Assembly: GCA_042408535.1 (NCBI GenBank)
Contig: JBHORA010000039.1
Location: forward strand, 3,419 to 67,418
Length of the DNA stretch: 64,000 nucleotides
DNA from: Chloroflexota bacterium
GTDB taxonomy: Bacteria > Chloroflexota > Limnocylindria > Limnocylindrales > CSP1-4
Reading direction: 5' to 3'
Positions 9,362 through 26,291 of the stretch are shown here, piece after piece; the first letter of the stretch is position 1, and the number at the start of each line of letters is the position of its first letter. The position numbers were made by a program, and so were the translations under genes. The notes below the pieces were generated by a model. The model was not told the DNA's origin, made no database searches, and saw only the letters and a list, made by a program, of their open reading frames with translations.

Positions 9362-10372
9362 TCAGCCGCTCGGCAGCGGTGAGGGCACCGAGATGACATC
9401 TGCCTCGAGCGGCATCCCATCTACGTAGTCGACGTAGACCACAGCCCTTTGAGCCTTCGAGGGACACGCGTCGGTGCCTGAGGGGCTGGCGGTGCCGGAT
9501 TCCGTGGATGAGGTAGCGAACGTTACCGCCCAGACCCATCGATCGGCTTCCACATCACCATCCGCCACCACCAAGTCGCCAAACGCGCCGGCGGTCGTCG
9601 TGAGCAACTGCCAAAAATAGCATTGGGGAAGGAGGGTGCGCGCTGCTGCGACGGCGTCCGTAGCGGCGACGCTGGAGCTCGGGTGCGCCGGCTCGACGTA
9701 GGTGGCCGATTCAAGCGGACCGATCCAGATGATGGCCTCGACAACCGGCAGGGTCTCGCACGCCTGCTTATCGCAGGCCGGATCGCGGGTGTGAACGCTG
9801 AGGACAATGCCTTTCGCCGACCCAGCGGGCGGGAGGCTCACCGGTCCGACCTGATCTATCCCGTACAGGAACATCGCGCGCCCCCCGCTTCGCGCGCCAT
9901 AGAGTGGCAACGCATGGCACGGCTGCCACTCGTCTGCCCCAACCGGGCATGACATCGGGGCGGCCGCGTGCAACCATCCTCCCACCAGCAGCTGGATGCC
10001 CTCGCCTGATCGCGCGATGAGCGCCTCTGCCTCATCCGGGGTCAGGACCCTCTGACCCTGGATCGAGCCGGGCACTCGGCCAGGATTCGTGCCGGACACG
10101 GTGGGCGAACTGGGCTCTATGGGCGTCGCGGTCGGCCCGCCGCCCGCGCCGTTGGGCACTAGGTAACCGAGCCTCGGTGCAACGAGCACGACAAGGCCGA
10201 TGACCACCGCGACGGCGACGATCGAACCGGCGGAGACGCCGAGCTGGATCCGCGGCCCGGCCTTAAGGGGTGAGAGCGCGAGGTCATCTCGCGCCCGGGC
10301 GACCTCTTCGTCGTAGAGGCGCGCGAGTGCGCCCTCGAGAAGGTCGTCGTCTCGATTACGTGTTCCGGTCAC
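9362..10372 (-). CDS. single-pass membrane protein, putative anti-sigma partner
   Basis: Overlaps the upstream ECF sigma gene by 17 nt. It has a cytoplasmic N-terminus, a TM (SIVAVAVVIGLVVLV) and a Cys-containing extracytoplasmic domain. Confidence 0.7.
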   Translation of the reverse strand: MTGTRNRDDDLLEGALARLYDEEVARARDDLALSPLKAGPRIQLGVSAGSIVAVAVVIGLVVLVAPRLGYLVPNGAGGGPTATPIEPSSPTVSGTNPGRVPGSIQGQRVLTPDEAEALIARSGEGIQLLVGGWLHAAAPMSCPVGADEWQPCHALPLYGARSGGRAMFLYGIDQVGPVSLPPAGSAKGIVLSVHTRDPACDKQACETLPVVEAIIWIGPLESATYVEPAHPSSSVAATDAVAAARTLLPQCYFWQLLTTTAGAFGDLVVADGDVEADRWVWAVTFATSSTESGTASPSGTDACPSKAQRAVVYVDYVDGMPLEADVISVPSPLPSG

Positions 10373-11314: not shown

Positions 11315-11391
<77 letters not shown>

Positions 11392-12192: not shown

Positions 12193-12427
12193 GGCTGACC
12201 TCCTTCGTGCAAGCTGAACGAGCTCGGTTCGTCGAGCTCGGTGGTGGCGTGGCCGGCCGCTGGAGCCGGCAAGCGCGGGCGCCGAACGAACCCCGGCGCC
12301 GACGAAGGATGGCAGGCCGTCGATGAAGGAACGATGAAGACGGAGACCCCGCCGGCTTCGATAACGAAATCTGACCCGCTTCGCAACCGTCAGCCAACCC
12401 GGAGCGCGTACGATCGGCGATCCGGAG

Positions 12428-13216
12428 GTGATCGATATGCGCCTGCTCGTCGCCGAAGACGACCGGCGCCTCGCCGGTCTCCTCCGGCGCGGCCTGGAAG
12501 AAGAGGGCTACGCGGTCGACCTCGTCGGGACGGCGGAGGAGACCCGCTGGCTGGCGACCGAGGTCCCCTACGACACGATCGTCCTCGACGTCATGCTCCC
12601 CGACGGGGACGGCTTCGACGTTTGCCGGGAGCTCCGGGCCGCCGGTCGCTGGGCCCCGGTCCTCTTTCTGACCGCCCGCACGGCCGTCGCCGACCGGGTA
12701 CGCGGTCTCGATGGCGGCGGCGACGACTACCTCGTCAAGCCCTTCGAGTGGGACGAGCTCCTCGCCCGGATCCGGGCCCTCGTTCGCCGTGGAGCACAAC
12801 CGCGGCCGGCGACGATCGAGCTCGGCTCCTTCGTCCTCGACCCGGCGAGCCGGGAGGTTCGGATCGCAGGCAAGCGGATCGACCTCTCCGCCCGGGAGTT
12901 CGCCATCCTCGAGGTCCTCGCCCGCCACCCGAACGAGGTGCTCTCGCGGGCCGACATCCGGGAGGCCGTCTGGGACTGGGCCTTCGAGGGCCGCTCGAAC
13001 GTCATCGACGTCCACGTCGCATCCCTCCGCCGGAAGCTCGGCGGTCGCCCCGGCGCGCCGCGGATCGAAACCGTTCGCGGTGTTGGCTACGCCCTCCGGC
13101 CGCCCGCCGGCGCGCGACCTCGATGGGGTCCTCGAACCGGGGGTGAGGGGAGCGGCGGCCATGACGGAAGCCTCGACCCCTCGGTGACGTCCCGCCATCA
13201 CCCAGGCGGCCGGTGA
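12428..13216 (+). CDS. OmpR/PhoB-family response regulator
   Basis: MRLLVAEDD...DLVGTAEE...VLDVMLPDGDGF...DDYLVKPF, plus winged helix (LSAREFAILEVL...VIDVHVASLRRKL...VRGVGYAL). The stop overlaps the kinase start (GTGA). Confidence 0.9.
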   Translation: MIDMRLLVAEDDRRLAGLLRRGLEEEGYAVDLVGTAEETRWLATEVPYDTIVLDVMLPDGDGFDVCRELRAAGRWAPVLFLTARTAVADRVRGLDGGGDDYLVKPFEWDELLARIRALVRRGAQPRPATIELGSFVLDPASREVRIAGKRIDLSAREFAILEVLARHPNEVLSRADIREAVWDWAFEGRSNVIDVHVASLRRKLGGRPGAPRIETVRGVGYALRPPAGARPRWGPRTGGEGSGGHDGSLDPSVTSRHHPGGR

Positions 13217-14541
13217 GCCTCCGAGCTCGGCTCACCCTCTGGCTGGCGCTCGCCGTCACGAGCCTCGTCGTCGCCGCGGGAGGTCTCGTCTGGGTCTCCA
13301 TCGGCCAGCAGCTCCGACGCTCCCTCGACGAGACCATCCGGCTCCATGCCGAGAGCGTTGCGGCGGCCCTCGAGTCCGACCCGGACGCCCCGATCGACAT
13401 CCTGGCGAGCGGCCGGCCGGCGGTCTTCACCATCCTCTACGGTCGGGACGGAGCCCCGATCCGCCAGACGGCGATGGCGGCCGAGCTGCCAGGGGTGCCA
13501 CCACCGGGCCCGTCCGAGCTCGTCGTCGGCAACGAGCACTACGTCTTCTACGCCATCGATGGCCCGATGGGTCGAATCGTAACCGGGGCGACGACGAGCG
13601 GCATCGAGGAGACGCAGGCTGCGGTGACGCAGGATCTGGTGGCGGTCGGGCTCCTCGTTGCCGTGGTGGCCGTCGCCGGGACCTGGTGGCTCGTCGGCCG
13701 GGTGCTGGCTCCCCTCGCCGCCCTAGCGGCCGAGCTCGAGACGATCGAGCCCGACGAACTCGATCGCCCCTTCGTCGGTCGACCTGGACGGGACGAGGTC
13801 GGCCGCCTCACGCGGTCGATCGCTGGGCTTCTCGCCCGCCTCGACGAGGGGCGCCGCCGCCAGCAGGCCTTCGTGGCTGCCGCCTCCCACGATCTCCGAA
13901 CCCCGCTCGCCGCCCTCCGGACCGAGCTGGAACTCGCCCTCCGAGGCCGACCCGACGGAGCGAGGCTCCGCCAGGCCATCGAAGCCGCCCACGGCGATGC
14001 CGTCCGGCTCGGGCAGCTGGCCGACGGCCTCCTCGCCCTGGCCGAAGCTGAACCGGGAGGCCGGCCCCTGGCCCGAACCCGGGTCAGCCTCGAGGCCCTC
14101 CTCGAGGCGGCCGCCGACGACTGTCGGTCCCTGGCCGAGTCCAAGAAGGCGGCGATCGAGATCGTTGCTTCGGACGATGCGGTCGTCGTCGATCGGGTGC
14201 GCCTCGAGCAGGCGCTCCGGAACATGGTCGCCAACGCGGTCCGGTACTCCCCCGAGGGGGCCCCAGTCCGGATCGTGGCCGACGTAACGACGCGTCGGCT
14301 GCGGCCAGGCTTGCCGGGGCGGCGCTGGCTGCGGGTCGGCGTCGTCGACCGCGGGCCCGGCGTGGATCCGGCGGTCGAGGCCCGTCTCTTCCTCCCCTTC
14401 CCGCGGCGGAACGGTGAGGGTGAGGGAGCCGGGCTCGGTCTGGCGATCGCGGCGGCCGCCGTCCGAGCCCATGGCGGGGAGATCGGCTACCGACCCCTGG
14501 CAGAGGGCGGCTCGGAGTTCTGGTTCGCGGTCCCTTGCTGA
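13213..14541 (+). CDS. sensor histidine kinase (TM-HAMP-HisKA-HATPase)
   Basis: H-box AAASHDLRTPLAALRTELE; N-box LEQALRNMVANAVRYSP; G-boxes VVDRGPGV and GAGLGLAIA. Confidence 0.9.
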   Translation: MSLRARLTLWLALAVTSLVVAAGGLVWVSIGQQLRRSLDETIRLHAESVAAALESDPDAPIDILASGRPAVFTILYGRDGAPIRQTAMAAELPGVPPPGPSELVVGNEHYVFYAIDGPMGRIVTGATTSGIEETQAAVTQDLVAVGLLVAVVAVAGTWWLVGRVLAPLAALAAELETIEPDELDRPFVGRPGRDEVGRLTRSIAGLLARLDEGRRRQQAFVAAASHDLRTPLAALRTELELALRGRPDGARLRQAIEAAHGDAVRLGQLADGLLALAEAEPGGRPLARTRVSLEALLEAAADDCRSLAESKKAAIEIVASDDAVVVDRVRLEQALRNMVANAVRYSPEGAPVRIVADVTTRRLRPGLPGRRWLRVGVVDRGPGVDPAVEARLFLPFPRRNGEGEGAGLGLAIAAAAVRAHGGEIGYRPLAEGGSEFWFAVPC

Positions 14542-14782
14542 CAGTGGACACGGACCTGCCCAGATCAACGTCCTCGCTGCCAGCGAGGACGAGGGCGTGG
14601 TCAGGAACGCGAAAGCCGCCGTGCCCCGGGTGCACGTCCCCGGACCACCATTTCGTGTTCGTCGCCGACCGAAGCTGCCGACTCGGCCGCTCCCGTGGTC
14701 CCTGTGCCCCCGGTTTTCTGTTCTGTGGGCACGGCCCGGCCGCCGCCCAGCCCAGACGCTTGGAGGCCTGGGCGATCTCGGC

Positions 14783-14811
14783 TTGACCCACCGGCCGGGT
14801 CGGCATACGCT
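14783..14811 (+). promoter_or_regulatory. sigma-70-type promoter candidate (TTGACC - 17 nt - TACGCT)
   Basis: -35 at 14783-14788 and -10 at 14806-14811, placing the TSS a few nt before the riboswitch aptamer. Confidence 0.5.
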
Positions 14812-14819
14812 CGCCCTTC

Positions 14820-14881
14820 GGCGATGGCGTCCGCCGAGACGGTGTCCGTCTGAACCGCCCGCACGGGCTGATGGCTCCTGC
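14820..14881 (+). promoter_or_regulatory. fluoride riboswitch aptamer (crcB motif), copy 1
   Basis: GGCGAUGGCGUCCGCC / AGACGG-UGU-CCGUCU / GAACCGCCC-GCAC-GGGC / UGAUGGCUCCUGC. The blocks match the remembered B. cereus and T. petrophila fluoride aptamers. Confidence 0.8.
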
Positions 14882-14962
14882 ATCATTCTGCCGGGGCGTG
14901 ACGCTCCCGAAGAGGCGTCCCGAGGGCGCGTCGCGAACCCCGTCCCGAGAACGGAGGCTAGC

Positions 14963-15970
14963 GTGAGCGAGGCGAGACGGACGGCGTCGGCGGGCGACGA
15001 GGCGAGCCTGCCGGCCACGGCGGGCGGACGCTTCTGGTCGCGCCTGCAGGCGGCCGTCGGCCGAGCCATCGTCGGCGGAGGTGAGGCGCTCCGCTTCCTG
15101 ACGATCGCCCTTCTGGCCGAAGGCCATGCCCTCATCGAGGACGTCCCCGGGACCGGCAAGACGACCCTCGCCCGGGCCTTCGCCCGAGCCCTTGGCCTCT
15201 CCTTCGCCCGGGTCCAGGGCACCCCCGATCTCCTGCCCGGCGACGTGACTGGGAGCAGCGTCTTCGAGGCCGGTCGCTTCCGCTTCGTGCCGGGGCCGAT
15301 CTTCGCCAACGTCCTCCTCGTCGACGAGATCAACAGGGCGACGCCTCGGACCCAGTCGGCGCTCCTCGAGGCGATGCAGGAGCGCCAGGTTTCCATCGAC
15401 GGGACGACCCACCGTCTCCCGACCCCCTTCCTCGTCCTGGCGACCGAGAACCCGATCGAGCTCGAAGGAACGTTCGCGCTGCCAGAGGCCCAGCTCGACC
15501 GCTTTCTCGTCCGGACGAGGCTCGGCTACCCCGACGAGGTCGAGGAACGCCGGATCGCCGCCCTCTACCGCGACGGTCGGCTCCCGATCGAGGACGTGCC
15601 CCAGATCACGAGCTCGGATGAGCTCGGATCGCTCATTGCCGCCGCCGCCCGCGTCACGGTAGCCGAGGACGTCGAGCACTACATCGTCGCCCTCGTCCGA
15701 GCTACCCGCGACCACCCCGACGTCCGGCTCGGGGCGAGCCCGCGGGCGAGCGTCGCCCTCTACCGGGCAAGCCAGGCGGCCGCCCTCCTCGCAGGGCGCG
15801 ACTTTGCCCTCCCCGACGACGTCGCGGCGGTCGCGCCGGCTGTCCTCGTCCACCGAATCCTCGTCGACGTCGATCGGGAACTCCGGGGAGCGAGCGCCGA
15901 GCAGATCATCGCTGACGTCCTCGACCGAACGCCGGCGCCGCCGATCGGCCTTGCTCGCTCCGGGCACTGA
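14963..15970 (+). CDS. moxR: MoxR-family AAA+ ATPase
   Basis: GGAGG 5 nt before GTG 14963; EDVPGTGKTTLARAFARAL, LLVDEINRATPRTQSALLEAMQE, ATENPIELEGTFALPEAQLDRF. Confidence 0.9.
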   Translation: MSEARRTASAGDEASLPATAGGRFWSRLQAAVGRAIVGGGEALRFLTIALLAEGHALIEDVPGTGKTTLARAFARALGLSFARVQGTPDLLPGDVTGSSVFEAGRFRFVPGPIFANVLLVDEINRATPRTQSALLEAMQERQVSIDGTTHRLPTPFLVLATENPIELEGTFALPEAQLDRFLVRTRLGYPDEVEERRIAALYRDGRLPIEDVPQITSSDELGSLIAAAARVTVAEDVEHYIVALVRATRDHPDVRLGASPRASVALYRASQAAALLAGRDFALPDDVAAVAPAVLVHRILVDVDRELRGASAEQIIADVLDRTPAPPIGLARSGH

Positions 15971-15989
15971 AGCGGGAGGTTGACCAACG

Positions 15990-17243
15990 ATGCCTCGTGG
16001 GGTGCTCGTCCCGGGTCCCTCCGGCCTCGTCGTCGCCGTTCTCGTCGGCCTCGGGCTCTGGAGCGGCGCGACGGGCCTCGTCTTCGTCGGTCTCATCGTC
16101 GGCCTCACGACCTGGCTCCGGACCGTCTGGTCCAGGCGCGGCCCGGTGGCCCTCCTCTACCGCCGCGAGCTCGCCTCCGAGCGGGCCGTCTGGGGCGATC
16201 GGGTCCCCCTCACCCTCGTCGTCGAGAACCGGAAGATCCTTCCCCTCGCCTGGCTCCGCACCGACGACTTCGTTGGCGACGAGCTCGTCCTCGATGGGAT
16301 CGCCACGGTGCCCACGGAGCGACCCGGGATCGCCAGCCTCCGAATGACCTGGTCCCTGGCGCCGTACGAGGAAGTCCGGCGGCAGCTGGCCATCGTCGCC
16401 GAGCGTCGGGGGCGGTTCCGGTTCGAGTCCGTCGCGCTGACCGTCGCTGACCTCTTCGGCCGGTCGGCGACGACCGTTGAGCGCCTACTCCCGGCGACGC
16501 TCGTCGTCCGGCCGCGGACGGTCCCGGTTCGGCTCGGCGGCCCGGCCGTCCTCCCCCTTGGCCCGCGCCGGCTCCGGCGCGGGCTCGTCGAGGACCCCGC
16601 CCTCTTCGCCGGCATCCGGCCCTTCCAGCGCGGGGATCCGCGGCGCCGCGTCCACGAGCGGGCGACGGCCCGGCTCGGTCGACCGGTGAGCAAGCGCTTC
16701 GAGCCGTCGGCGGCCCGCGACGTGGTCATCGCCCTCGACGCCCAAACGGTGCCGGGACCGGTCTGGCTCCTCCAGTGGGATGACGACCTCGTCGAAAGCC
16801 TCGCCGTGGCGGCAGGATCGCTCGCCCGCCGGCTCCTCGACGATGGTGCCGCTTGTGGCCTGGCCGTGAACGCCTGGACGTACCAGCCTGACCGGATCGG
16901 GTTCGTCCCGCCGAGGGCGGGCCCTGGCCAGCTCGCCCGGATCCTCGATCTCCTCGGCCGGCTGACGACCGTTCCCTCGATGCCGTACCCTCGGCTCCTC
17001 GGGGCCATCGGCCGGCGGATCAGCGCCGGGTCCCTTGTCATGACCCTGAGCAGTCGTGATCCGAGCGACGCCCTCCCCGTCCTCCGGCGTCTCCGATCCA
17101 GCGGCTTCGAGATCCTCCACATCGCCCTCGGCCCGGAGGCGACGGCGCACGCGGCCCTGGTTCGCCGGTTCGGCCTGCCGGCCCGCGTTGCCCGTCTCGC
17201 CCCCGACTGGCGGACCTGCCATGCCATCGAGTTGGCGAGCTAA
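15990..17243 (+). CDS. DUF58 domain protein (vWA-like partner of MoxR)
   Basis: Two N-terminal TM helices, then ...FAGIRPFQRGDPRRRVHERATARLGRPVSKRFEPS...VIALD, typical of DUF58. Confidence 0.85.
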   Translation: MPRGVLVPGPSGLVVAVLVGLGLWSGATGLVFVGLIVGLTTWLRTVWSRRGPVALLYRRELASERAVWGDRVPLTLVVENRKILPLAWLRTDDFVGDELVLDGIATVPTERPGIASLRMTWSLAPYEEVRRQLAIVAERRGRFRFESVALTVADLFGRSATTVERLLPATLVVRPRTVPVRLGGPAVLPLGPRRLRRGLVEDPALFAGIRPFQRGDPRRRVHERATARLGRPVSKRFEPSAARDVVIALDAQTVPGPVWLLQWDDDLVESLAVAAGSLARRLLDDGAACGLAVNAWTYQPDRIGFVPPRAGPGQLARILDLLGRLTTVPSMPYPRLLGAIGRRISAGSLVMTLSSRDPSDALPVLRRLRSSGFEILHIALGPEATAHAALVRRFGLPARVARLAPDWRTCHAIELAS

Positions 17244-18609
17244 GCTCGGCTGGCGACTCCTCGGGCTCCTCCCGGCCGCTGCCGCAGCGACCGCGGAAGG
17301 GGCGTGGGTCGCTGTCTGGTACGCCGCGCTCGGTGCCGCCGATCGCCCGGCGCGGCCGCTTGGCCTCATCACCTTCGTGGGGGCGGCAGCGGCCGGTCTC
17401 GTCCTCGCCCGGAGGCTCGAGGGCAGGGGGCGGCTGGACCGACGTGCAGAACGGGTCGTTCGCCGGCTCATGCTCGGTGCGGCCATCGGTGGCGCGGCAG
17501 CGCTCGGTCTCGCCCTCGAGGGCCCCGTCGGGAGCGGTGACGTTGCCGACTGGATCGGTGGGCTCGCCGCCGGCGCCCGCCGGGGCGAGGTCGGCGGCCT
17601 TCTCCTCGGCGTCGCCGCGTGGCGGGGGACGCGCCACGCCGCTCCGGAGCGGGACGACCTCGTGACGGCCGGCCTCCTCGGCTGGGGAGCGCCGCTCCTC
17701 GGCATCCCGTGGCTCGTCGGGGGCCTCCGGCCCGGGCCCGCCTTCGTGGCGAACGCTCTCGTCGCGACCCTCGTCTTCGTGGCGGCGAGCCTCGTCGCCA
17801 TCGGCCTGACCCGTCTGGAGGCCCTCGCCCAATCGGCCGGCCTCGACTGGCGGCGGAACCGAGCCTGGCTCGTCCTCCTCGTCGCGGTCGTCGCGTCGGC
17901 GAGCCTCCTCGCCCTCCCGGCGGCGGTCCTCCTCGGGGCATCCGTCGACGCCCTCCTGGCCGGCCTCGCCGGTCCGGTGGCTGTCAGCGTCGAGGTCGCC
18001 GAACGGGCCGTCGGGCTCCTCGGGAGGAGCGTCGGCTCGACGCTCGGGACAGCCATGCCTGGTTCGCCCGGCGAGGTCGGCGGCACCTCGGGGGTCGGCG
18101 ACCTCGTGCCGAACCTGTCGATCCCGGGCGTCCTCGCCGGCCTCGCGGCGGTCCTCTTCGCCATCGTTGTCCTCGTCGCCGCCCACCGTTTCTGGAGCCG
18201 GGTCCGCGGCGGTCGGCCGTCGCCGACGCCACCGCTGCCGATCGTCGAGGAACGGCACGTCCGGCCCCCGCGACCGAGGGTCCGTCTCGCTCTCCCGAGG
18301 CTCGCCCTCCGCCTGCCGCGTTTCCGCGGCGGGCCACGCACAGCGACGGAGGCGTACCTCGACCTGGCGGCCAGGCTCGGGCCGGAAGGAGAGCTCGCCC
18401 GCCGCCTCGGCGAGTCGCCGTCCGGACACGCCCGCCGTCTCCGGAAGCGACATCTCGGCTCCGTCCGCCTCGACCTCCTCGCCGCCGACGTCGCCCTCGA
18501 GCGGTTCGCCGGCCGCGGTCTGCCGCGACGGGAGGTGGCGCGGGCCATCGACAGGGCACGGGACCCGCGGCTCGCTGGCGATGGGCGGTCGGGAGGAAGC
18601 CGTGGCTGA
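17221..18609 (+). CDS. polytopic membrane protein with DUF4129-like C-terminus
   Basis: ATG 17221 overlaps the DUF58 end by 23 nt. Multiple TM helices; C-terminus TEAYLDLAARLG...ESPSGHARRL...ERFAGRGL. Confidence 0.7.
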   Translation: MPSSWRAKLGWRLLGLLPAAAAATAEGAWVAVWYAALGAADRPARPLGLITFVGAAAAGLVLARRLEGRGRLDRRAERVVRRLMLGAAIGGAAALGLALEGPVGSGDVADWIGGLAAGARRGEVGGLLLGVAAWRGTRHAAPERDDLVTAGLLGWGAPLLGIPWLVGGLRPGPAFVANALVATLVFVAASLVAIGLTRLEALAQSAGLDWRRNRAWLVLLVAVVASASLLALPAAVLLGASVDALLAGLAGPVAVSVEVAERAVGLLGRSVGSTLGTAMPGSPGEVGGTSGVGDLVPNLSIPGVLAGLAAVLFAIVVLVAAHRFWSRVRGGRPSPTPPLPIVEERHVRPPRPRVRLALPRLALRLPRFRGGPRTATEAYLDLAARLGPEGELARRLGESPSGHARRLRKRHLGSVRLDLLAADVALERFAGRGLPRREVARAIDRARDPRLAGDGRSGGSRG

Positions 18610-18649
18610 CCGGTCGTTCGACACGGGCGGCGCGGACGAGGGGACGACC

Positions 18650-19909
18650 ATGCGCAGCGTCGAGGTTGGGCCGGGATCGAAGGCGACGGCCGGGCCGGTT
18701 CCGCCGAACGGCGCCGCCTCCGGGTGGCTGACCCCCGGCGTCCGAGGCATCGGGGCGGCCAGTCTCCTCTCCGACCTCGGTCACGAGGTCCCGACAACGC
18801 TCCTGCCGGCCTTTCTCTCGTCCGCCCTCGGTGCGCCGCCGGCCGCCCTCGGCCTCATCGAGGGGCTGGCCGACGGGCTCTCGGGCCTGGCCAAGATCGC
18901 AGGTGGGCCGTTTGCTGACGAACCCGAGCGACGTCGGTCGATCGCCGTCGGCGGCTACACCCTGGTCGCGGTCCTGTCGGCGGCGATCGGGCTCGCCACC
19001 GCCGTCTGGCAGGTGGCGATCCTGCGAACCGGTGCCTGGGTCTCGCGTGGCTTTCGGACCCCGGCCCGGAACGCCCTCCTCGCCGACGCCGTCGACCGTC
19101 GGGTGTACGGCCGGGCCTACGGCTTCGAGCGGGCGATGGACAACCTCGGAGCGGTGCTCGGTCCACTCGCGGCGCTCGCCCTCGTGAGCCTCCTCGACGT
19201 CCGAAGGGCGATCCTCGTCTCGGTCGTCCCGGGCCTCCTCGCCAGCCTCGCCATCCTGTACGCCATCCGCCACATCCGTGCAGCGCCCCCCGGAGCGACG
19301 GCCCGTCCCCGACGCCGAGGTTTCGATCTCCCCGTCCGCTCCCTTCTTCGGGGTCGCCTCCGCCGCGCCTTCGTCGTCGTGGGGGCCTTCGAAGTCGGCA
19401 ACGTGGCGGCGACGCTCCTCATCCTTCGAGCCACGGAGGTCTTCACGGCGGCAGGCCGAGCCGACGCGGCACAGCTCGCCGTCGCCCTCTACGTCGCTTA
19501 CAACCTGGCTGGGACGCTGGCGAGCATTCCCTTCGGGCGACTCGGCGACGCTCGCGGCTTCACAGCGCCGCTCCTCGCCGGATTCGCCCTCTTCGCTGGG
19601 GCCTACGGTGCCTTCGCCCTCGGGCCGGCCGACCCGCTCCTCCTGGGTGCCGCCTTCGTGGCCGCTGGGGTCGGCATCGGCATCGTCGAAACGGGTGAGC
19701 ATGCCATCGTCGCTTCCGCTGCCCCGCCGGAGGCGCGAGGCTCGGCCTTCGGGCTCCTGGCCGGCGCCCAGAGCTTCGGCGATTTTGCCGCCAGCGGGAT
19801 CGTCGGCATCCTCTGGAGCCTCGGCGGAGGGACGATCGCCTTCGCCTATGCCGCCGCCTGGATGGTGATCGCCTTCCTTCTCGCCGCGCTCGTCCGGCCG
19901 GGCCGCTGA
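18650..19909 (+). CDS. MFS transporter
   Basis: GIGAASLLSDLGHEVPTTLLPAFL..., roughly 12 hydrophobic segments, with the GRLGDARG loop motif. Confidence 0.85.
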   Translation: MRSVEVGPGSKATAGPVPPNGAASGWLTPGVRGIGAASLLSDLGHEVPTTLLPAFLSSALGAPPAALGLIEGLADGLSGLAKIAGGPFADEPERRRSIAVGGYTLVAVLSAAIGLATAVWQVAILRTGAWVSRGFRTPARNALLADAVDRRVYGRAYGFERAMDNLGAVLGPLAALALVSLLDVRRAILVSVVPGLLASLAILYAIRHIRAAPPGATARPRRRGFDLPVRSLLRGRLRRAFVVVGAFEVGNVAATLLILRATEVFTAAGRADAAQLAVALYVAYNLAGTLASIPFGRLGDARGFTAPLLAGFALFAGAYGAFALGPADPLLLGAAFVAAGVGIGIVETGEHAIVASAAPPEARGSAFGLLAGAQSFGDFAASGIVGILWSLGGGTIAFAYAAAWMVIAFLLAALVRPGR

Positions 19910-19966
19910 CCGATGTTCGGGGTCGGGCGACCCTCGAGATCGGGCGATGGCCCCAGGGGCCGCCAG

Positions 19967-19995
19967 TTGACCGGCGTCGCCGTGGCGCCTATCCT
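19967..19995 (+). promoter_or_regulatory. sigma-70-type promoter candidate (TTGACC - 17 nt - TATCCT)
   Basis: -35 at 19967-19972 and -10 at 19990-19995, which is 7 nt before the second aptamer. Same architecture as at 14783. Confidence 0.5.
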
Positions 19996-20002
19996 TTTTG
20001 CC

Positions 20003-20068
20003 GGCGATGGTGTCCGCCGAGACGGGACGCTCCGTCTGAACCGCCCGATCGGGCTAATGGCCCCTGAC
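20003..20068 (+). promoter_or_regulatory. fluoride riboswitch aptamer (crcB motif), copy 2
   Basis: GGCGAUGGUGUCCGCC / AGACGG-GACGCU-CCGUCU / GAACCGCCC-GAUC-GGGC / UAAUGGCCCCUGAC. A competing hairpin at 20059-20088 sequesters the 3' pseudoknot strand. Confidence 0.8.
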
Positions 20069-20122
20069 CGATGGTTCGGTCTGGGGCCGTTCGATTCCCC
20101 CGGCCAGACGGAGGTGTCTCGC

Positions 20123-21412
20123 GTGGACAACCTGTATGTCGTCGCTGCACTCTGGATCGGCATCGCCCTTGTCGCTAGCCTCGTCTCGATCCGGCTCGGC
20201 GTCTCGGTCGCGCTCGTCGAGATCGCCCTTGGGGTCGCCGCCGGGAACGCCATCGGGCTGACGACGACGCCGTGGGTGGACGTTCTGGCCGGCTTCGGCT
20301 CGGTCATCCTGACCTTCCTCGCCGGGGCCGAGATCGACCCAGGAGCGCTCCGCCGACACCTGAAGGCGAGCCTCGCCATCGGGGCGGTCTCCTTTGCCGC
20401 CCCCTTTGTCGCCGCCTGGGCCGTCGCCTCCTCCGTCTTCTGCTGGGACCTGGCGGCCAGCCAGATCGCCGGCGTCGCCCTGTCGACGACCTCGGTCGCC
20501 GTCGTCTATGCGGTCATGATCGAGTCTGGTTTGGCGAGCGAAGAGCTCGGGAAGCTCATCCTGGCGGCCTGCTTCGTCACCGACCTCGGCACGGTCCTCG
20601 CCCTCGGGATCCTGTTCGCCGACGTCAGTCCCCTCCTGCTCCTCTTCGGGGCGGCGACGGCGGGCGTCCTCCCCGTCGTCGGGCGGGCGACGCGCTGGTT
20701 CGTCGAGCGCTTCCCGAACCGTGTCTCGGAGCCAGAGACGAAGTTCCTCCTCCTCGTCCTCTTCGGCCTCGGCGGGCTCGCCGCAGCCGCCAGGAGCGAG
20801 GCCGTCCTGCCGGCCTATCTCCTCGGACTCGCCGTGGCCGGCGCCCTGGCCGAGGCCCGGGTCCTCGTCCACCGGATCCGGGCGATCGCCTTCAGCCTCC
20901 TCACTCCCTTTTACTTCATCAGGGCGGGTCTGTATGTCTCGCTGCCGGCCGTCGTGGCAGGAGCCGGACTCGTTGCCGCCTTCTTCGTGATCAAGGTTGG
21001 GTCGAAGGTCGTGGGCGTCTGGCCGACGACGCGGGCCTTCGGGCTCCCCGCCCGGGAGTCGACGTACGCGACGCTCCTCATGTCGACGGGGCTCACCTTC
21101 GGGACGATCTCGTCCCTCTTCGGCCTCAGCCACGGCTACATCGACCAGGCCCAGTACACGGTCCTGGTGACCGTCGTCATCCTGTCGGCCGTGGCGCCGA
21201 CTCTCGTGGCGACGACCTTCTTTAGCCCGGTCCTCGCCGGCGAGGCCGAGCTCGAGGAGTTCGATGCGGCCGAGGAGATCGACGCTGGCCTCCTGCCGCG
21301 GCCGGGATCGGCCGAGGAGATCGGCGCGGCGGCGGCCTCCAGGAGGGCTGGCTCGGGCCGCCAGCTGGCGAACGATGAGCGCGTCGCAGTCGGCGAGGCG
21401 GAATCCGCCTAG
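20123..21412 (+). CDS. cation:proton antiporter (Na+/H+ exchanger family, CPA type)
   Basis: GGAGG before GTG 20123; LTFLAGAEID, ALSTTSVAVVYAVM, about 11-12 TM helices and an acidic C-terminal tail. Confidence 0.85.
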   Translation: MDNLYVVAALWIGIALVASLVSIRLGVSVALVEIALGVAAGNAIGLTTTPWVDVLAGFGSVILTFLAGAEIDPGALRRHLKASLAIGAVSFAAPFVAAWAVASSVFCWDLAASQIAGVALSTTSVAVVYAVMIESGLASEELGKLILAACFVTDLGTVLALGILFADVSPLLLLFGAATAGVLPVVGRATRWFVERFPNRVSEPETKFLLLVLFGLGGLAAAARSEAVLPAYLLGLAVAGALAEARVLVHRIRAIAFSLLTPFYFIRAGLYVSLPAVVAGAGLVAAFFVIKVGSKVVGVWPTTRAFGLPARESTYATLLMSTGLTFGTISSLFGLSHGYIDQAQYTVLVTVVILSAVAPTLVATTFFSPVLAGEAELEEFDAAEEIDAGLLPRPGSAEEIGAAAASRRAGSGRQLANDERVAVGEAESA

Positions 21413-21449
21413 AGGCGCCGGCACCAGGGCGCCTGGCGACGTCACGCCG

Positions 21450-23081
21450 ATGGCCCCCGAGCCGGGCGGCGCCCGGACGGATGAGGCCAGCCAGGGGGGA
21501 CCCCGGGGCATCGACGTCGGCTGCGTCGTCTGCCGCTTCGTGGCCGAGGCGGTCGAGCGCCGGATCTTCTTCCTCTTCGCCGAGGCGGTCGGTGAGTCGT
21601 GGTTCGTCGCCAAGATGCGGGCTGGTGGGTTCTGCACGGCCCACGTCCGGCACCTCGTCTCGGCCGGCCGCGGTCCGCGGCTGACGGGCCCCTTCGAAGA
21701 CGTCCTCAATGGCTGGCTCGCCCGGCGGCGAGACGCCGGCGGGACGGCTCTGCCCTCGGTCGGCGAGGCTTGCCCGATCTGCGAGACCGCGACCTGGGCG
21801 ACGAACCACGCCCTCGGGCTCCTCGCCTCCGGCGACGCGCGGCGGATCGAGGTCGGCCTCGGCCGATCCGGCCCGCTCTGTCTCATCCACCTCGATCGGC
21901 TCATCGACTGGATGCCCTGGCAAGACCAGGTTGCGGTCGCCCGGCGCTGGGCGGAGCGGCTCCTGGAGGCCGTCTGGCTGGCGAGCGAGGTGGATGCCGC
22001 GGCCCCGGACGCCGCTGCTCATCGCCTCGCTGCGGATCGCCCCGCCGCGGCCCCGGACGCCGCCGCCGATCGCCTCGCCGCCGATCGCCTCGCCGCCGCC
22101 GTCGCTGTCCTCGCCGGCCCCTCTCCGATGGTTCGGCAGCCGGAGGTGAGCCCGGTCGCTCAAGTGCGCCCAGGGCGGACCGTCTCCACTCCGGAGGGAC
22201 GCCGATCGGGCGCCGCGGCTGGCTGGCACGACGGACTCCTCACCGAGGCCGGCCTGCTTGCCGAGCTCGCGGCGGGGCGCTGCCCGGTTTGTACCGCCGG
22301 TATCGCCGCCCAACAGCGACTCCTCACCTGGCTCGCCGAGCCCGCCCCGACGCGCGACCACCGCGACCTCGATGCCCTCTGTGGCGACCACCTCCGCCAG
22401 CTCGCCCGGCTCGCCCCGGCGAGTGCCGCCTCGGCGACCCGCAGCGCCCTCGAGCGCCGCCTGGCGATGCTCGCGGCGCTGCCGACCGTCGCCGACCGGC
22501 CACCGCTCCAGCTCGCCGAGCGGGTCCGCTGGGCATGGCGGCGGGCTCGGGCGCGCGGGCCGAACGAGCGGGGCGGTTCGCTCAGCATCGGGGTCCGGGC
22601 CGTCTGGCGCGCCCTTCGCTCCCCCCGCGACTTCGTCGCCGAGCCGCTCCGCCGAGCTCGCGTCGCCGCCGATCGGGAGTGCGTCGCCTGCCGCGCCGCG
22701 ATCACCGCCCGTCGTCGCTCGCTCGCCCTCCTCGGGGCGACCCTCCGGAGCCGAGGCGGGCGCGACCGATTCGAACGGAGCGGTGGCCTCTGCCTCCGGC
22801 ACACCGCCGCTGCCGCGGTCGCCGGGCCGGCCCTCGGGCCGGTCGGTCTCGCCCTCGTCGGGGCGGTCGCTGAGGGCCGAGTCGTTGGCGTCCGTTTCGA
22901 GCTCGAGGAGGCGCTGCGGAAGTCGAGCTGGTCGGTCCGGTACGAACCGGTCGGACCCGAGGTCACAGCCTGGCGGCGGGCGATCCTCTTGGTCCTCGGC
23001 AACGCCGCGCTTCCCGATGTCGACGACTCGCTTGCCGTCGCGGCGGCCGACGAGACCGACCGCCCGCGACGGGCCGTCTGA
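21450..23081 (+). CDS. Cys-rich protein with four CxxC...C-x2-H modules (internally duplicated)
   Basis: CVVCR..(33)..GFCTAHVRHL; CPICE....GPLCLIHLDRL; CPVCT....ALCGDHLRQL; CVACR....GGLCLRHTAA. An Ala/Asp repeat linker joins the two halves. The C-terminal ELEEALRKSSWSVRYEP..EVTAWRRAI recalls DUF6062-type proteins (from memory). Confidence 0.7.
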   Translation: MAPEPGGARTDEASQGGPRGIDVGCVVCRFVAEAVERRIFFLFAEAVGESWFVAKMRAGGFCTAHVRHLVSAGRGPRLTGPFEDVLNGWLARRRDAGGTALPSVGEACPICETATWATNHALGLLASGDARRIEVGLGRSGPLCLIHLDRLIDWMPWQDQVAVARRWAERLLEAVWLASEVDAAAPDAAAHRLAADRPAAAPDAAADRLAADRLAAAVAVLAGPSPMVRQPEVSPVAQVRPGRTVSTPEGRRSGAAAGWHDGLLTEAGLLAELAAGRCPVCTAGIAAQQRLLTWLAEPAPTRDHRDLDALCGDHLRQLARLAPASAASATRSALERRLAMLAALPTVADRPPLQLAERVRWAWRRARARGPNERGGSLSIGVRAVWRALRSPRDFVAEPLRRARVAADRECVACRAAITARRRSLALLGATLRSRGGRDRFERSGGLCLRHTAAAAVAGPALGPVGLALVGAVAEGRVVGVRFELEEALRKSSWSVRYEPVGPEVTAWRRAILLVLGNAALPDVDDSLAVAAADETDRPRRAV

Positions 23082-23091
23082 GGAGACTGAC

Positions 23092-24525
23092 GTGGTCGAG
23101 AGGGCCGGGATGCCCGGGATGGAGATCGGACCGAGCGCTGCCTTCGTCGACCCGGCGATGGAGTCCGGGCCGCCCTCCGAGGGACGGCTCGTCCTCGTCG
23201 AGGTCGAGCGGGCGACGGGCCCAGGGCCCGCCGTCGAGTTCGACGATCGCGGTCGGCCGCTCGTCCGCAGCTTCCGGGCCGAGGGGATCTGGCTGGGGTT
23301 CGACCACGGCTCGGTCCCCGAGACCGACGACGGTCGTGGCCGCACCCTTGCCGCCCTCGTCGCCCTCCCGGGCTCCACGTTCCCGGGCTGCCGGATCGCG
23401 GCCAGGCTCACCGGCGCCCTCGTGTCGGGGGACCGCGTCGTCCTGCTCGCTGCCCTGCCTGGCTGGCCGCCGCCCGCCATCGGCCTGGCCCGGGCGGCCG
23501 CGGCCCTCGGCGACGCGGCGCACCTCGAGGCCGAAGCGGCCGCCGACCTCCTCCGTCGGGCCCGCCTCCGGTACCGCGAGCGGGTCCGGGCCGGTCGCCC
23601 GACCGGAGGCCGGGCCTGGGCGGCGATCGGCCGGCTGCCGCCGGAGCTGGCCCGCTTCGCCACGCCCCACTCGCCGGCCGAGTACCGACTCGCCCAGCTT
23701 CCGCCGCGACTCGTCCGCGGCCTCGAGGGGATCCTCGACGACGACGAGCGGATCCTCGCCTGGGTCCGCCGCCCGGCGATCCTCGAGGGCGGACTCCGCG
23801 AGACCCTTCGGCGGGCGGGTCGCCGCGTCGATCGTCGCGAGGCGGTCCTCGTCCTCACCGATCGCCAGCTCGTCTGGGTCGTCGACCACGCCGAGCCCGG
23901 GCGCTACCTCGTCGAGTGGGGCGTCGACCTCGAGCTCGTGCCCCTCGAGCGGTTGATCCAAGTTCGGGCTGCCACGACCGCGGACGTCATCCGGCTCACC
24001 GTCGAGACCGACGCCGGGGGATCGGCGAGGAGCCGGTCCTACGAGCTCCCGGCCGAAGCTACCGCCGAGACCGAGGTCGTCGTCGCCCTCCTCGAGCGGT
24101 TCACGCCGGAGGCCGCCGATGGCCGCCCGGTCCGTCGCTACGAGCTCGGGGCGCGCCAGCCGGCGCTCGAAGAGGCGGACCGGTTCCACCAGCGGGAGGT
24201 CGCGGTCGCCTTCCTCGAGCGAGCGGGGGAGCTCGGGGAGGTCCTCGGCTTCCTCTTCAGCCCCCGTCGGCCGGGGACGCGCGAACCCTCGGCCCTCGCC
24301 GTCTTCGAGTGGGGCGCCGCGCTCCTCACGCCGGACGCGGTCGTTCGGACGTCGGCGACCGACCTCGCGGCCCTTGGCCTCACCCTCTCGCCGCTCGTGG
24401 GCCGCCTCTCGCTCGTGCCGGGACCGACGTTGACGTACCCGGCACCGTTCTCGACGACGGGTACCGCCGTCGTCCGGCTCCTCCGACGGGCGGCGGCGAA
24501 CGCGCGCCCGGGCCCTTCCCGCTGA
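23092..24525 (+). CDS. two-domain protein: degenerate inorganic-pyrophosphatase-like N-terminus plus bacterial PH-like C-terminal region
   Basis: AGGAG 7 nt before GTG 23092. LVLVEVERATGPGPAVEFDDRGRPLVRSF...FDHGSVPETDDGRGRT..PGCRIAARLTGAL follows the family I PPase pattern with acidic residues replaced. ERILAWVRRP...AVLVLTDRQLVWVVD is PH-like. Confidence 0.65.
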   Translation: MVERAGMPGMEIGPSAAFVDPAMESGPPSEGRLVLVEVERATGPGPAVEFDDRGRPLVRSFRAEGIWLGFDHGSVPETDDGRGRTLAALVALPGSTFPGCRIAARLTGALVSGDRVVLLAALPGWPPPAIGLARAAAALGDAAHLEAEAAADLLRRARLRYRERVRAGRPTGGRAWAAIGRLPPELARFATPHSPAEYRLAQLPPRLVRGLEGILDDDERILAWVRRPAILEGGLRETLRRAGRRVDRREAVLVLTDRQLVWVVDHAEPGRYLVEWGVDLELVPLERLIQVRAATTADVIRLTVETDAGGSARSRSYELPAEATAETEVVVALLERFTPEAADGRPVRRYELGARQPALEEADRFHQREVAVAFLERAGELGEVLGFLFSPRRPGTREPSALAVFEWGAALLTPDAVVRTSATDLAALGLTLSPLVGRLSLVPGPTLTYPAPFSTTGTAVVRLLRRAAANARPGPSR

Positions 24526-24581
24526 TCCTCGGGGCTCATCCCCGGGCCCGGCAGGCGCGCAGGTGCTCGCTCGGCCCTCGG

Positions 24582-26291
<1,710 letters not shown>

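Follow-up and report, generated by a model that had tools for sequence, protein, structure and literature searches.

What does a fluoride riboswitch control when its operon carries no exporter gene? The question is raised by positions 19967-24525 of a 64-kb stretch of Chloroflexota DNA, which was analysed at its full length and is called the window here. This segment holds a promoter, a fluoride aptamer and three genes, for an antiporter (gene 1), a Cys-rich protein (gene 2) and a protein with a pyrophosphatase-like domain (gene 3). It follows a first riboswitch-led operon (operon 1). A reading made earlier from the DNA letters, here the sequence-only reading, had proposed that the two switches form a fluoride-responsive locus built without the canonical exporters. 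We find that the segment is probably a fluoride-inducible transcription unit governed by an ON switch. The RNA element is, by its sequence and predicted structure, a textbook fluoride riboswitch, ordinary for its known class. The cargo families, not the RNA element, are the noteworthy part. Genes 2 and 3, together with the MoxR AAA+, DUF58-like and DUF4129 genes of operon 1, make up what comparison with relatives indicates to be a conserved fluoride-regulated cassette in this Chloroflexota lineage. These genes probably represent new fluoride-regulated protein families.

The riboswitch leader

The identity of the aptamer is evident from a search of the whole window against 4227 Rfam families. 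The fluoride riboswitch family (crcB motif, RF01734) matches at 19994-20073 (+) with 41.3 bits against a gathering threshold (GA) of 34 (E = 5.2e-8), and the match covers model positions 1-64 of 64. Stem P1 pairs 20003-06 with 20015-18 and stem P2 pairs 20043-46 with 20051-54, with all four pairs present in each. The pseudoknot joins 20009-14 to 20059-64 (GGCCCC) through five of its six pairs; U20013-G20060 is a wobble and U20011-C20062 is mismatched. A clade-specific hairpin (AGACGG, 20020-25; CCGUCU, 20032-37) is inserted between P1 and P2. The aptamer and its segmentation had been put forward in the sequence-only reading, and the covariance-model search recovers them above the gathering threshold.

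For comparison, 43 related loci (given L numbers, such as L001) were gathered via the two unknown proteins, genes 2 and 3, and a covariance model of our own (R1) was built from six aptamers. The window aptamer scores 87.2 bits with R1, which yields 32 strong aptamers (45-93 bits). Standard pairs fill 94.5% of the pair cells of these 32 aptamers, as opposed to 36-57% when the partners are slid. Pairing across the clade reaches 100% in P1, 97.6% in P2 and 84.8% in the pseudoknot. The inserted hairpin, found in 31 of these aptamers, shows covariation, with 13 changes of A-U to G-C. At its gathering score, the Rfam model also finds aptamers in L001 (two), L002, L004, L025, L028, L033, L040 and L042 (two). 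The window aptamer lies in the 5' untranslated region (UTR), 50 nucleotides (nt) upstream of the Na+/H+ exchanger gene, and leaders orthologous to it precede antiporter-crcB-DUF190 operons.

The element shares with known crcB-motif switches P1, P2, the pseudoknot, the core GGCGAUGG...AACCGCC...GGCUGAUG and the location in a 5' UTR. Like the known terminator-type ON switches of this class, which precede crcB, eriC-F, mutS and antiporter genes, it has a competing hairpin over the 3' strand of the pseudoknot; its first cargo gene is likewise an antiporter. It differs from them in the 17-40 nt clade hairpin between P1 and P2, which is an insertion in Rfam's model, in the habitual mismatch in the pseudoknot and in a weak U-tract. 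It also differs in its cargo, since two of the three genes belong to unannotated families and the operon is without an exporter gene.

A sigma-70-like promoter (19967-19995, +) precedes the aptamer, with the -35 element TTGACC at 19967-72, a 17-nt spacer and the -10 element TATCCT at 19990-95. A consensus scan of both strands of 14000-26000 returned it as the only sigma-70-like site (0.1 in shuffled sequence). In nine orthologous antiporter leaders, the hexamers recur as TTGAC[CGT] and TA[TC]NCT at a constant distance to the aptamer. The promoter is considered real because the hexamers are conserved across these leaders while the spacer sequences diverge. A promoter had been proposed at this very site, 58 nt past the MFS stop at 19909, and the proposal stands. 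From the position of the promoter, the transcription start is expected a few nucleotides 5' of the aptamer core at 20003. The spacer and -10 region also hold a hairpin, GGCGTCGCCGTGGCGCC, with TATCCTTTTT after it (19973-19999). As a candidate terminator of operon 1, the hairpin at 19973-89 was rejected: it is unconserved in L001 and L006, and the scan counted 4 terminators against 2.7 by chance.

The expression platform is a terminator-like hairpin at 20056-20091 (+), with a 12-bp core at 20059-20088 that is extendable to 15 bp. Its energy is -28.2 kcal/mol, compared with -12.7 +/- 2.8 for shuffled sequences (z = -5.5). The 5' arm of the hairpin includes the pseudoknot 3' strand GGCCCC (20059-64). 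Because both structures need this strand, the hairpin and the ligand-bound pseudoknot are mutually exclusive. The hairpin is conserved in ten orthologous leaders, with nine consensus pairs and both-side changes at three positions. In constrained folding models in which the pseudoknot strand may not pair, the hairpin stem loses its base. An 11-bp hairpin at 20059-20088 had been named as the OFF-state alternative that uses the pseudoknot strand; its existence, which fits an ON switch, is confirmed, and only its size needs correction.

The ribosome-binding region (20105-20125, +) consists of CAGACGGAG at 20105-13, an overlapping Shine-Dalgarno (SD) sequence GGAGG at 20110-14 and a GTG start codon at 20123-25. 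The loop and 3' arm of the inserted hairpin, CUCCGUCUG (20030-38), are complementary to CAGACGGAG over 9 nt. The resulting duplex, at -16.6 kcal/mol, is better than those of all ~290 control windows from the coding sequence. The same complementarity is found in L001 (8634-8761) and L006 (2522-2649), with a range of -16.6 to -19.1 kcal/mol. L002, L016 and L038 show it in weaker form, and L004, L007, L035 and the riboswitch-1 leaders lack it. The minimum-energy fold of the full leader includes this pairing and buries both the SD sequence and the start codon. The start codon of the first gene stands 48-66 nt past the pseudoknot strand in 27 of 30 scored leaders, whatever the downstream gene is.

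From these competing folds we infer the response to the ligand and the level of control. The crcB motif is described as having overlapping terminators, with the ligand turning genes on (PMC2864571), and by analogy the competition between pseudoknot and hairpin appears to fit this arrangement. The sigma-70-type promoter would start the RNA, and its first ~70 nt would fold as the fluoride aptamer. With no fluoride present, the GGCCCC strand would be taken into the very stable hairpin and expression would be off, most likely through premature termination or pausing. Occlusion of the ribosome-binding site is a possible second layer. When the Mg2+/fluoride complex is bound, the pseudoknot would take the strand, the base of the hairpin could not form, and the operon would be expressed. 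Control by termination is favoured over control of translation.

The cargo and its linkage to fluoride aptamers

Homologues of gene 3 lie under fluoride aptamers in about 29 of the 43 related loci, and in 14-15 of them gene 3 is the first gene on the tblastn map. It stands directly behind the aptamer in L009, L013-L015, L022-L025, L028, L033, L036, L039, L040, L042 and probably L027. In L001, L002, L004, L006, L007, L010, L016, L018, L020, L030, L034, L035, L038 and L041, it is found at the end of longer aptamer-led operons. The Rfam model at its gathering score confirms the aptamer before gene 3 in L025, L033, L040 and L042. The R1 matches before gene 3 in L009, L028 (+) and L036 fall under Rfam's own threshold, and an Rfam rescan of seven loci without a strong R1 match found no fluoride aptamer at the gathering score. 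The linkage of gene 3 to the aptamer is thus frequent, not universal.

Nearly all of these loci belong to Chloroflexota metagenome-assembled genomes labelled Limnocylindria, Limnocylindrales or Chloroflexia. The commonest long form of the operon reads aptamer - antiporter - crcB - DUF190/CBS - MoxR - DUF58-like - DUF4129 protein - (Cys-rich) - gene 3. Genes 2 and 3 directly follow the MoxR, DUF58-like and DUF4129 genes in at least 12 loci; gene 2 is an optional member of the cassette, with about a dozen loci. Of the loci compared, just the window, L001 and L006 have the split layout with two switches, which seems to have arisen when the single-operon form was rearranged and crcB and DUF190 disappeared from this place.

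MutS domain-V gene pairs, NUDIX genes and an enolase_C fragment occur near the long-form operons. Two fluoride aptamers lie within 20 kb in L027, L028, L030, L033, L035, L036 and L042, on opposite strands except in L036. One of the two stands directly before a MutS domain-V gene pair in L028, L030, L035, L036 and L042. Such two-aptamer loci look like fluoride islands. In L043, a Chloroflexota contig of 41% GC, a fluoride match with a perfect pseudoknot lies at 10181-10255 between a gene-3-like gene of 24% identity and a MutS_V pair; it scores 33.1 bits against the threshold of 34 (E = 1e-6).

The three open reading frames (ORFs) of the window operon, at 20123-21412, 21450-23081 and 23092-24525, are all on the forward strand and are backed by third-position GC. 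The products of two of them are matched exactly by entries of the protein collection, P0001 for gene 2 and P0011 for gene 3. The order that had been proposed, an antiporter followed by two uncharacterised genes, is upheld by the ORF, Pfam and homologue searches. Gene 1 (429 amino acids) encodes a CPA2-type monovalent cation:proton antiporter with about 11 transmembrane segments. It matches the Na_H_Exchanger family PF00999 with E = 4.7e-35 and 121.6 bits against a threshold of 26.2, over profile positions 3-372 of 375. The NCBIfam model TIGR00932 (CPA2) gives 95.8 bits, which is under its cut-off of 238. The protein shares 67% identity with the antiporter next to the riboswitch in L004, and its orthologues come first after the aptamer in L001, L002, L004, L006, L007, L016, L035, L038 and L042. 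As the sequence-only reading had stated, antiporters are known cargo of fluoride riboswitches, and indeed the second most common (PMC11139923). The antiporter would counter the acidification that accompanies the entry of HF.

Gene 2 (21450-23081, +) encodes a Cys-rich protein of 543 amino acids that is predicted to be all-alpha. It has four CxxC...(~33 amino acids)...CxxH modules, whose Cys and His residues are invariant in the family, and a C-terminal motif, RKSSWSVRYEP, that is likewise invariant. Each module presumably forms one Cys3His metal site, four in all. A search of 5.8e9 proteins gave only 10 homologue clusters, none of them with a Pfam domain. DUF6062 (PF19538) matches all nine members of the gene 2 family below threshold (best E = 1.4e-5); for gene 2 the gathering score is missed with 22.1 bits against 27, over profile positions 18-67 of 243. 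A PDB profile search gave a weak match of the family to the Zn-binding bS18 (E = 0.19). This match is at the level of the motif, so homology to bS18 was rejected and the match was taken only to suggest a Cys3His zinc site. Gene 2 shares with DUF6062 and the Cys3His sites of actinobacterial bS18 the CxxC...GxCxxH spacing at its start. It differs from them in carrying the module fourfold, in being an all-helical protein of 500-600 amino acids and in matching no solved fold. A Foldseek search of the PDB with its AlphaFold model (predicted local distance difference test, pLDDT, 68) returned no fold match, the best E-value being 0.9.

Gene 3 (23092-24525, +) encodes a protein of 477 amino acids with an N-terminal pseudo-pyrophosphatase domain at about residues 30-170. 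The other parts are a conserved linker (TPHSxAEY / LPPRF) and two domains rich in beta structure (~221-335 and ~386-470), each of which ends in a helix. The initial search gave 71 homologue clusters, and no Pfam domain was found in gene 3 itself. The threshold of PF00719, the family I inorganic pyrophosphatase (PPase) profile, is not reached, and only one of 20 family members matches it at all (E = 0.13). The predicted model has a pLDDT of 82 and a predicted template modelling (pTM) score of 0.72. The top 50 Foldseek matches to this model are all family I PPases, the best being 4z70_B with E = 1.9e-7 over ~160 aligned columns. This match to the M. tuberculosis PPase Rv3628 (PDB 4z70) has a Foldseek probability of 1.0, a template modelling score of 0.55 on the target and 22% identity, and it covers the N-terminal ~140 residues. 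An exhaustive profile search gave 202 clusters in 1.84 billion representatives. All ten of the distant full-length relatives tested match PF00719 above threshold, and homology of gene 3 to PPases is established through these intermediates. They are P0119, P0124-P0128, P0130, P0132, P0139 and P0143, with E-values of 1e-36 to 1e-26 against the gene 3 profile.

The catalytic residues tell a different story from the fold. The set considered, in E. coli numbering, was E20, K29, E31, R43, Y51, Y55, D65, D67, D70, D97, D102, K104, Y141 and K142; the E. coli reference sequence used agrees with PDB fragments from the sequence search. About 10 of these 14 canonical residues are lost in the gene 3 family. 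Only E20 survives across the whole alignment and E31 and R43 across most of it, and K29, Y51, Y55, D65, D67, D70, D102, K104, Y141 and K142 are replaced. D65, D67 and D70 become variable, Arg, and Ala or Pro, respectively, with Arg nearly invariant at D67. Gene 3 is therefore best described as a pseudoenzyme, or a repurposed binding domain, fused to ~300 further residues; it is, by these replacements, not Ppa. The six aligned distant relatives (P0119, P0124, P0125, P0127, P0128 and P0130) also lack most of the catalytic residues, and the whole superfamily of PPase-domain fusions appears to be non-catalytic. Gene 3 thus has the N-terminal beta-barrel plus helix fold of family I PPases and differs from them in its largely replaced metal- and PPi-binding residues and in the fused extension. 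The earlier label of a PPase-like protein holds for fold and ancestry, but not for an enzyme.

Alternative explanations

Several observations weigh against a fluoride-responsive ON switch at this place. One pair of the pseudoknot, U20011-C20062, is mismatched. The tract after the hairpin, GUUCGAUU (20089-96), has just four U, and the predicted accessibility of the SD sequence shows no clear change between the two states in this leader. Read-through from operon 1 may enter switch 2, since the -35 element lies just 58 nt past the stop of the MFS gene. The organism is known from assemblies alone. The mismatch, the lower Rfam score than that of copy 1 (41.3 versus 51.1 bits) and the A that replaces the consensus G at 20056 could be signs of decay in a duplicate of riboswitch 1 that no longer functions. 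This account is scarcely credible, however. The aptamer still exceeds the gathering score, the mismatch and A20056 are both present in the L001 orthologue, and L001 and L006 share its promoter, its hairpin and its spacing to the start codon. The leaders closest to it belong to orthologous antiporter genes; copy 1 is more distant. The pyrimidine-pyrimidine mismatch (alignment columns 18/101) leaves this position unpaired in 25 of 31 clade aptamers, crcB-operon leaders included, and it is compensated as A-U, C-G and U-A in L030, L040 and L036. We therefore read the mismatch as a habit of this lineage and not as decay. The weak U-tract bears on the level of control. The consensus terminator scan, which needs five T in eight, did not flag the hairpin; relatives have better tracts of five to six U (L002, L016 and L007; UUUGUUGU, UUUUGGUU). 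Because the tract is weak, intrinsic termination is not assured in this leader. It is possible, if on balance doubtful, that the switch is mainly translational, with the ribosome-binding site sequestered in the ligand-free RNA and released once the aptamer is locked. The site would be held by a local anti-SD sequence or, here, by the loop and 3' arm of the inserted hairpin. The CUCCGUCUG-CAGACGGAG duplex, the buried SD sequence and start codon in the full-leader fold, and the similar spacing of the start codon across leaders all suit such a switch. A relay of three hairpins is predicted for L002, L016 and L038: blocking the pseudoknot strand frees an arm, which pairs with UCUCCGG and thereby opens the SD hairpin. 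On the other hand, the predicted probability of an unpaired SD sequence in the window leader shows no clear rise on blocking of the pseudoknot strand, going from 0.04 to 0.20 with the full leader and from 0.73 to 0.57 with the local platform. Accessibility changes in a mixed way over the 30 leaders, 8 going up and 3 down. The inserted hairpin lies outside the known ligand-binding core, and its dependence on fluoride is an assumption. The ON switch acting by termination remains the favoured reading.

Two further alternatives concern what the cargo does. PPase is a fluoride target, the enzyme best known for fluoride poisoning, and gene 3 might be an extra or fluoride-insensitive inorganic PPase that offsets the inhibition of PPi hydrolysis. 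Its family I PPase fold, the PF00719 matches of its distant relatives and the fact that its sole PDB sequence matches are PPases, weak as they are (E ~1.6), point this way, and PPases are known and frequent cargo of fluoride riboswitches (PMC11139923). The replaced catalytic set, shared with those PF00719-positive relatives, and the lack of a significant Pfam PPase match make an enzyme very improbable, and we read gene 3 as a pseudoenzyme. It is also improbable, if somewhat less so, that the two-switch locus replaces CrcB/Fluc and CLC-F, with the MFS transporter, the antiporter or both doing the exporting. CrcB was undetected in the 64-kb window, where tblastn gave noise only and a hidden Markov model (HMM) of four sequences gave no match. 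The multi-transmembrane ORFs of the window contain no CrcB or CLC domain and carry other domains, and the syntenic 22 kb of L001 is also without CrcB or CLC. Against a replacement stand the relatives, in which the orthologous antiporter, the MoxR cassette, the Cys-rich gene and gene 3 share one riboswitch-controlled operon with crcB and DUF190/CBS (L002, L016, L035 and L038); crcB is also nearby in L012 and L030. Since it is co-operonic with crcB in relatives, the cassette accompanies exporters rather than replacing them. Only ~15% of Flucs are riboswitch-controlled (PMC11139923), and a crcB elsewhere in the genome is therefore likely. The proposal of a locus without canonical exporters is accurate within the 64-kb window, but it is no evidence of a substitution for them.

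Operon 1, its surroundings and the meaning of the cassette

The first fluoride riboswitch lies at 14811-14887 (+) and scores 51.1 bits with the Rfam model. Its promoter, TTGACC-17-TACGCT (14783-14811, +), has the same layout as promoter 2. Operon 1 encodes, all on the forward strand, a MoxR AAA+ ATPase (14963-15970), a DUF58-like protein (15990-17243), a DUF4129-type membrane protein (~17220-18609) and an MFS transporter (~18602-19909). The first two and the transporter were assigned by Pfam; DUF4129 is assigned to orthologues in L002 and L003. The two Rfam matches bear out the proposed fluoride-controlled locus of about 10 kb. Its two switches had been called independent: both aptamers are real and the layout is conserved in L001 and L006, but independence does not follow, given the possible read-through from operon 1.

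A histidine kinase (HAMP/HisKA) and response regulator pair lies at 12365-14538, directly upstream of riboswitch 1, and is syntenic with L001 1074-3100. Pfam confirmed the kinase in the window; the annotation of the regulator comes from L001 alone. A convergent ORF of 569 amino acids (24582-26291, -), syntenic to malate synthase in L001, bounds operon 2 downstream. In L001, malate synthase domains and then isocitrate lyase are found at 13514-16406, and an SAM riboswitch lies at 21380-21495. A tRNA gene is located at 11318-11391 (-; 65.3 bits) in the window.

The MoxR genes place the cassette next to a known type of system. MoxR AAA+ proteins form chaperone operons with DUF58 or VWA-type partners, as in RavA-ViaA, CbbQ-CbbO and NorQ-NorD. 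Operon 1 and the ancestral single operon of the relatives have the same order as these, MoxR (AAA_3 + AAA_lid_2) followed by the DUF58-like and DUF4129 genes. They differ in the trailing genes 2 and 3, which are absent from known MoxR operons. The searchable literature yielded no MoxR system controlled by a fluoride riboswitch, nor any link of genes 2, 3 and the MoxR cassette to fluoride. Searches for literature linking the fluoride riboswitch with MoxR, DUF58, DUF190 or Limnocylindria returned nothing relevant.

A riboswitch is a natural label for fluoride-stress genes, and here it marks two unannotated families and a MoxR chaperone cassette. Finding mechanisms of fluoride resistance other than export is an open need (PMC11139923, Box 1), and the cargo provides clonable candidates for such resistance. 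The natural variants of the leader are a compact set in which to study how one aptamer is wired to termination or to translation in high-GC bacteria. The roles of the proteins we infer from their families and folds. One conceivable arrangement, which we regard as rather unlikely, is that genes 2 and 3 and the MoxR cassette form a single fluoride-stress system, in which an AAA+-driven machine reactivates or turns over enzymes and the dead PPase domain serves as adaptor or sensor. If this were true, the targets would be Mg-dependent enzymes locked by Mg-fluoride(-phosphate), for example PPase or enolase, and the dead PPase domain would recognise PPase-like oligomers, or sense PPi or fluoride. 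Limnocylindria-type Chloroflexota would then meet fluoride with damage control at the level of proteins, not with export.

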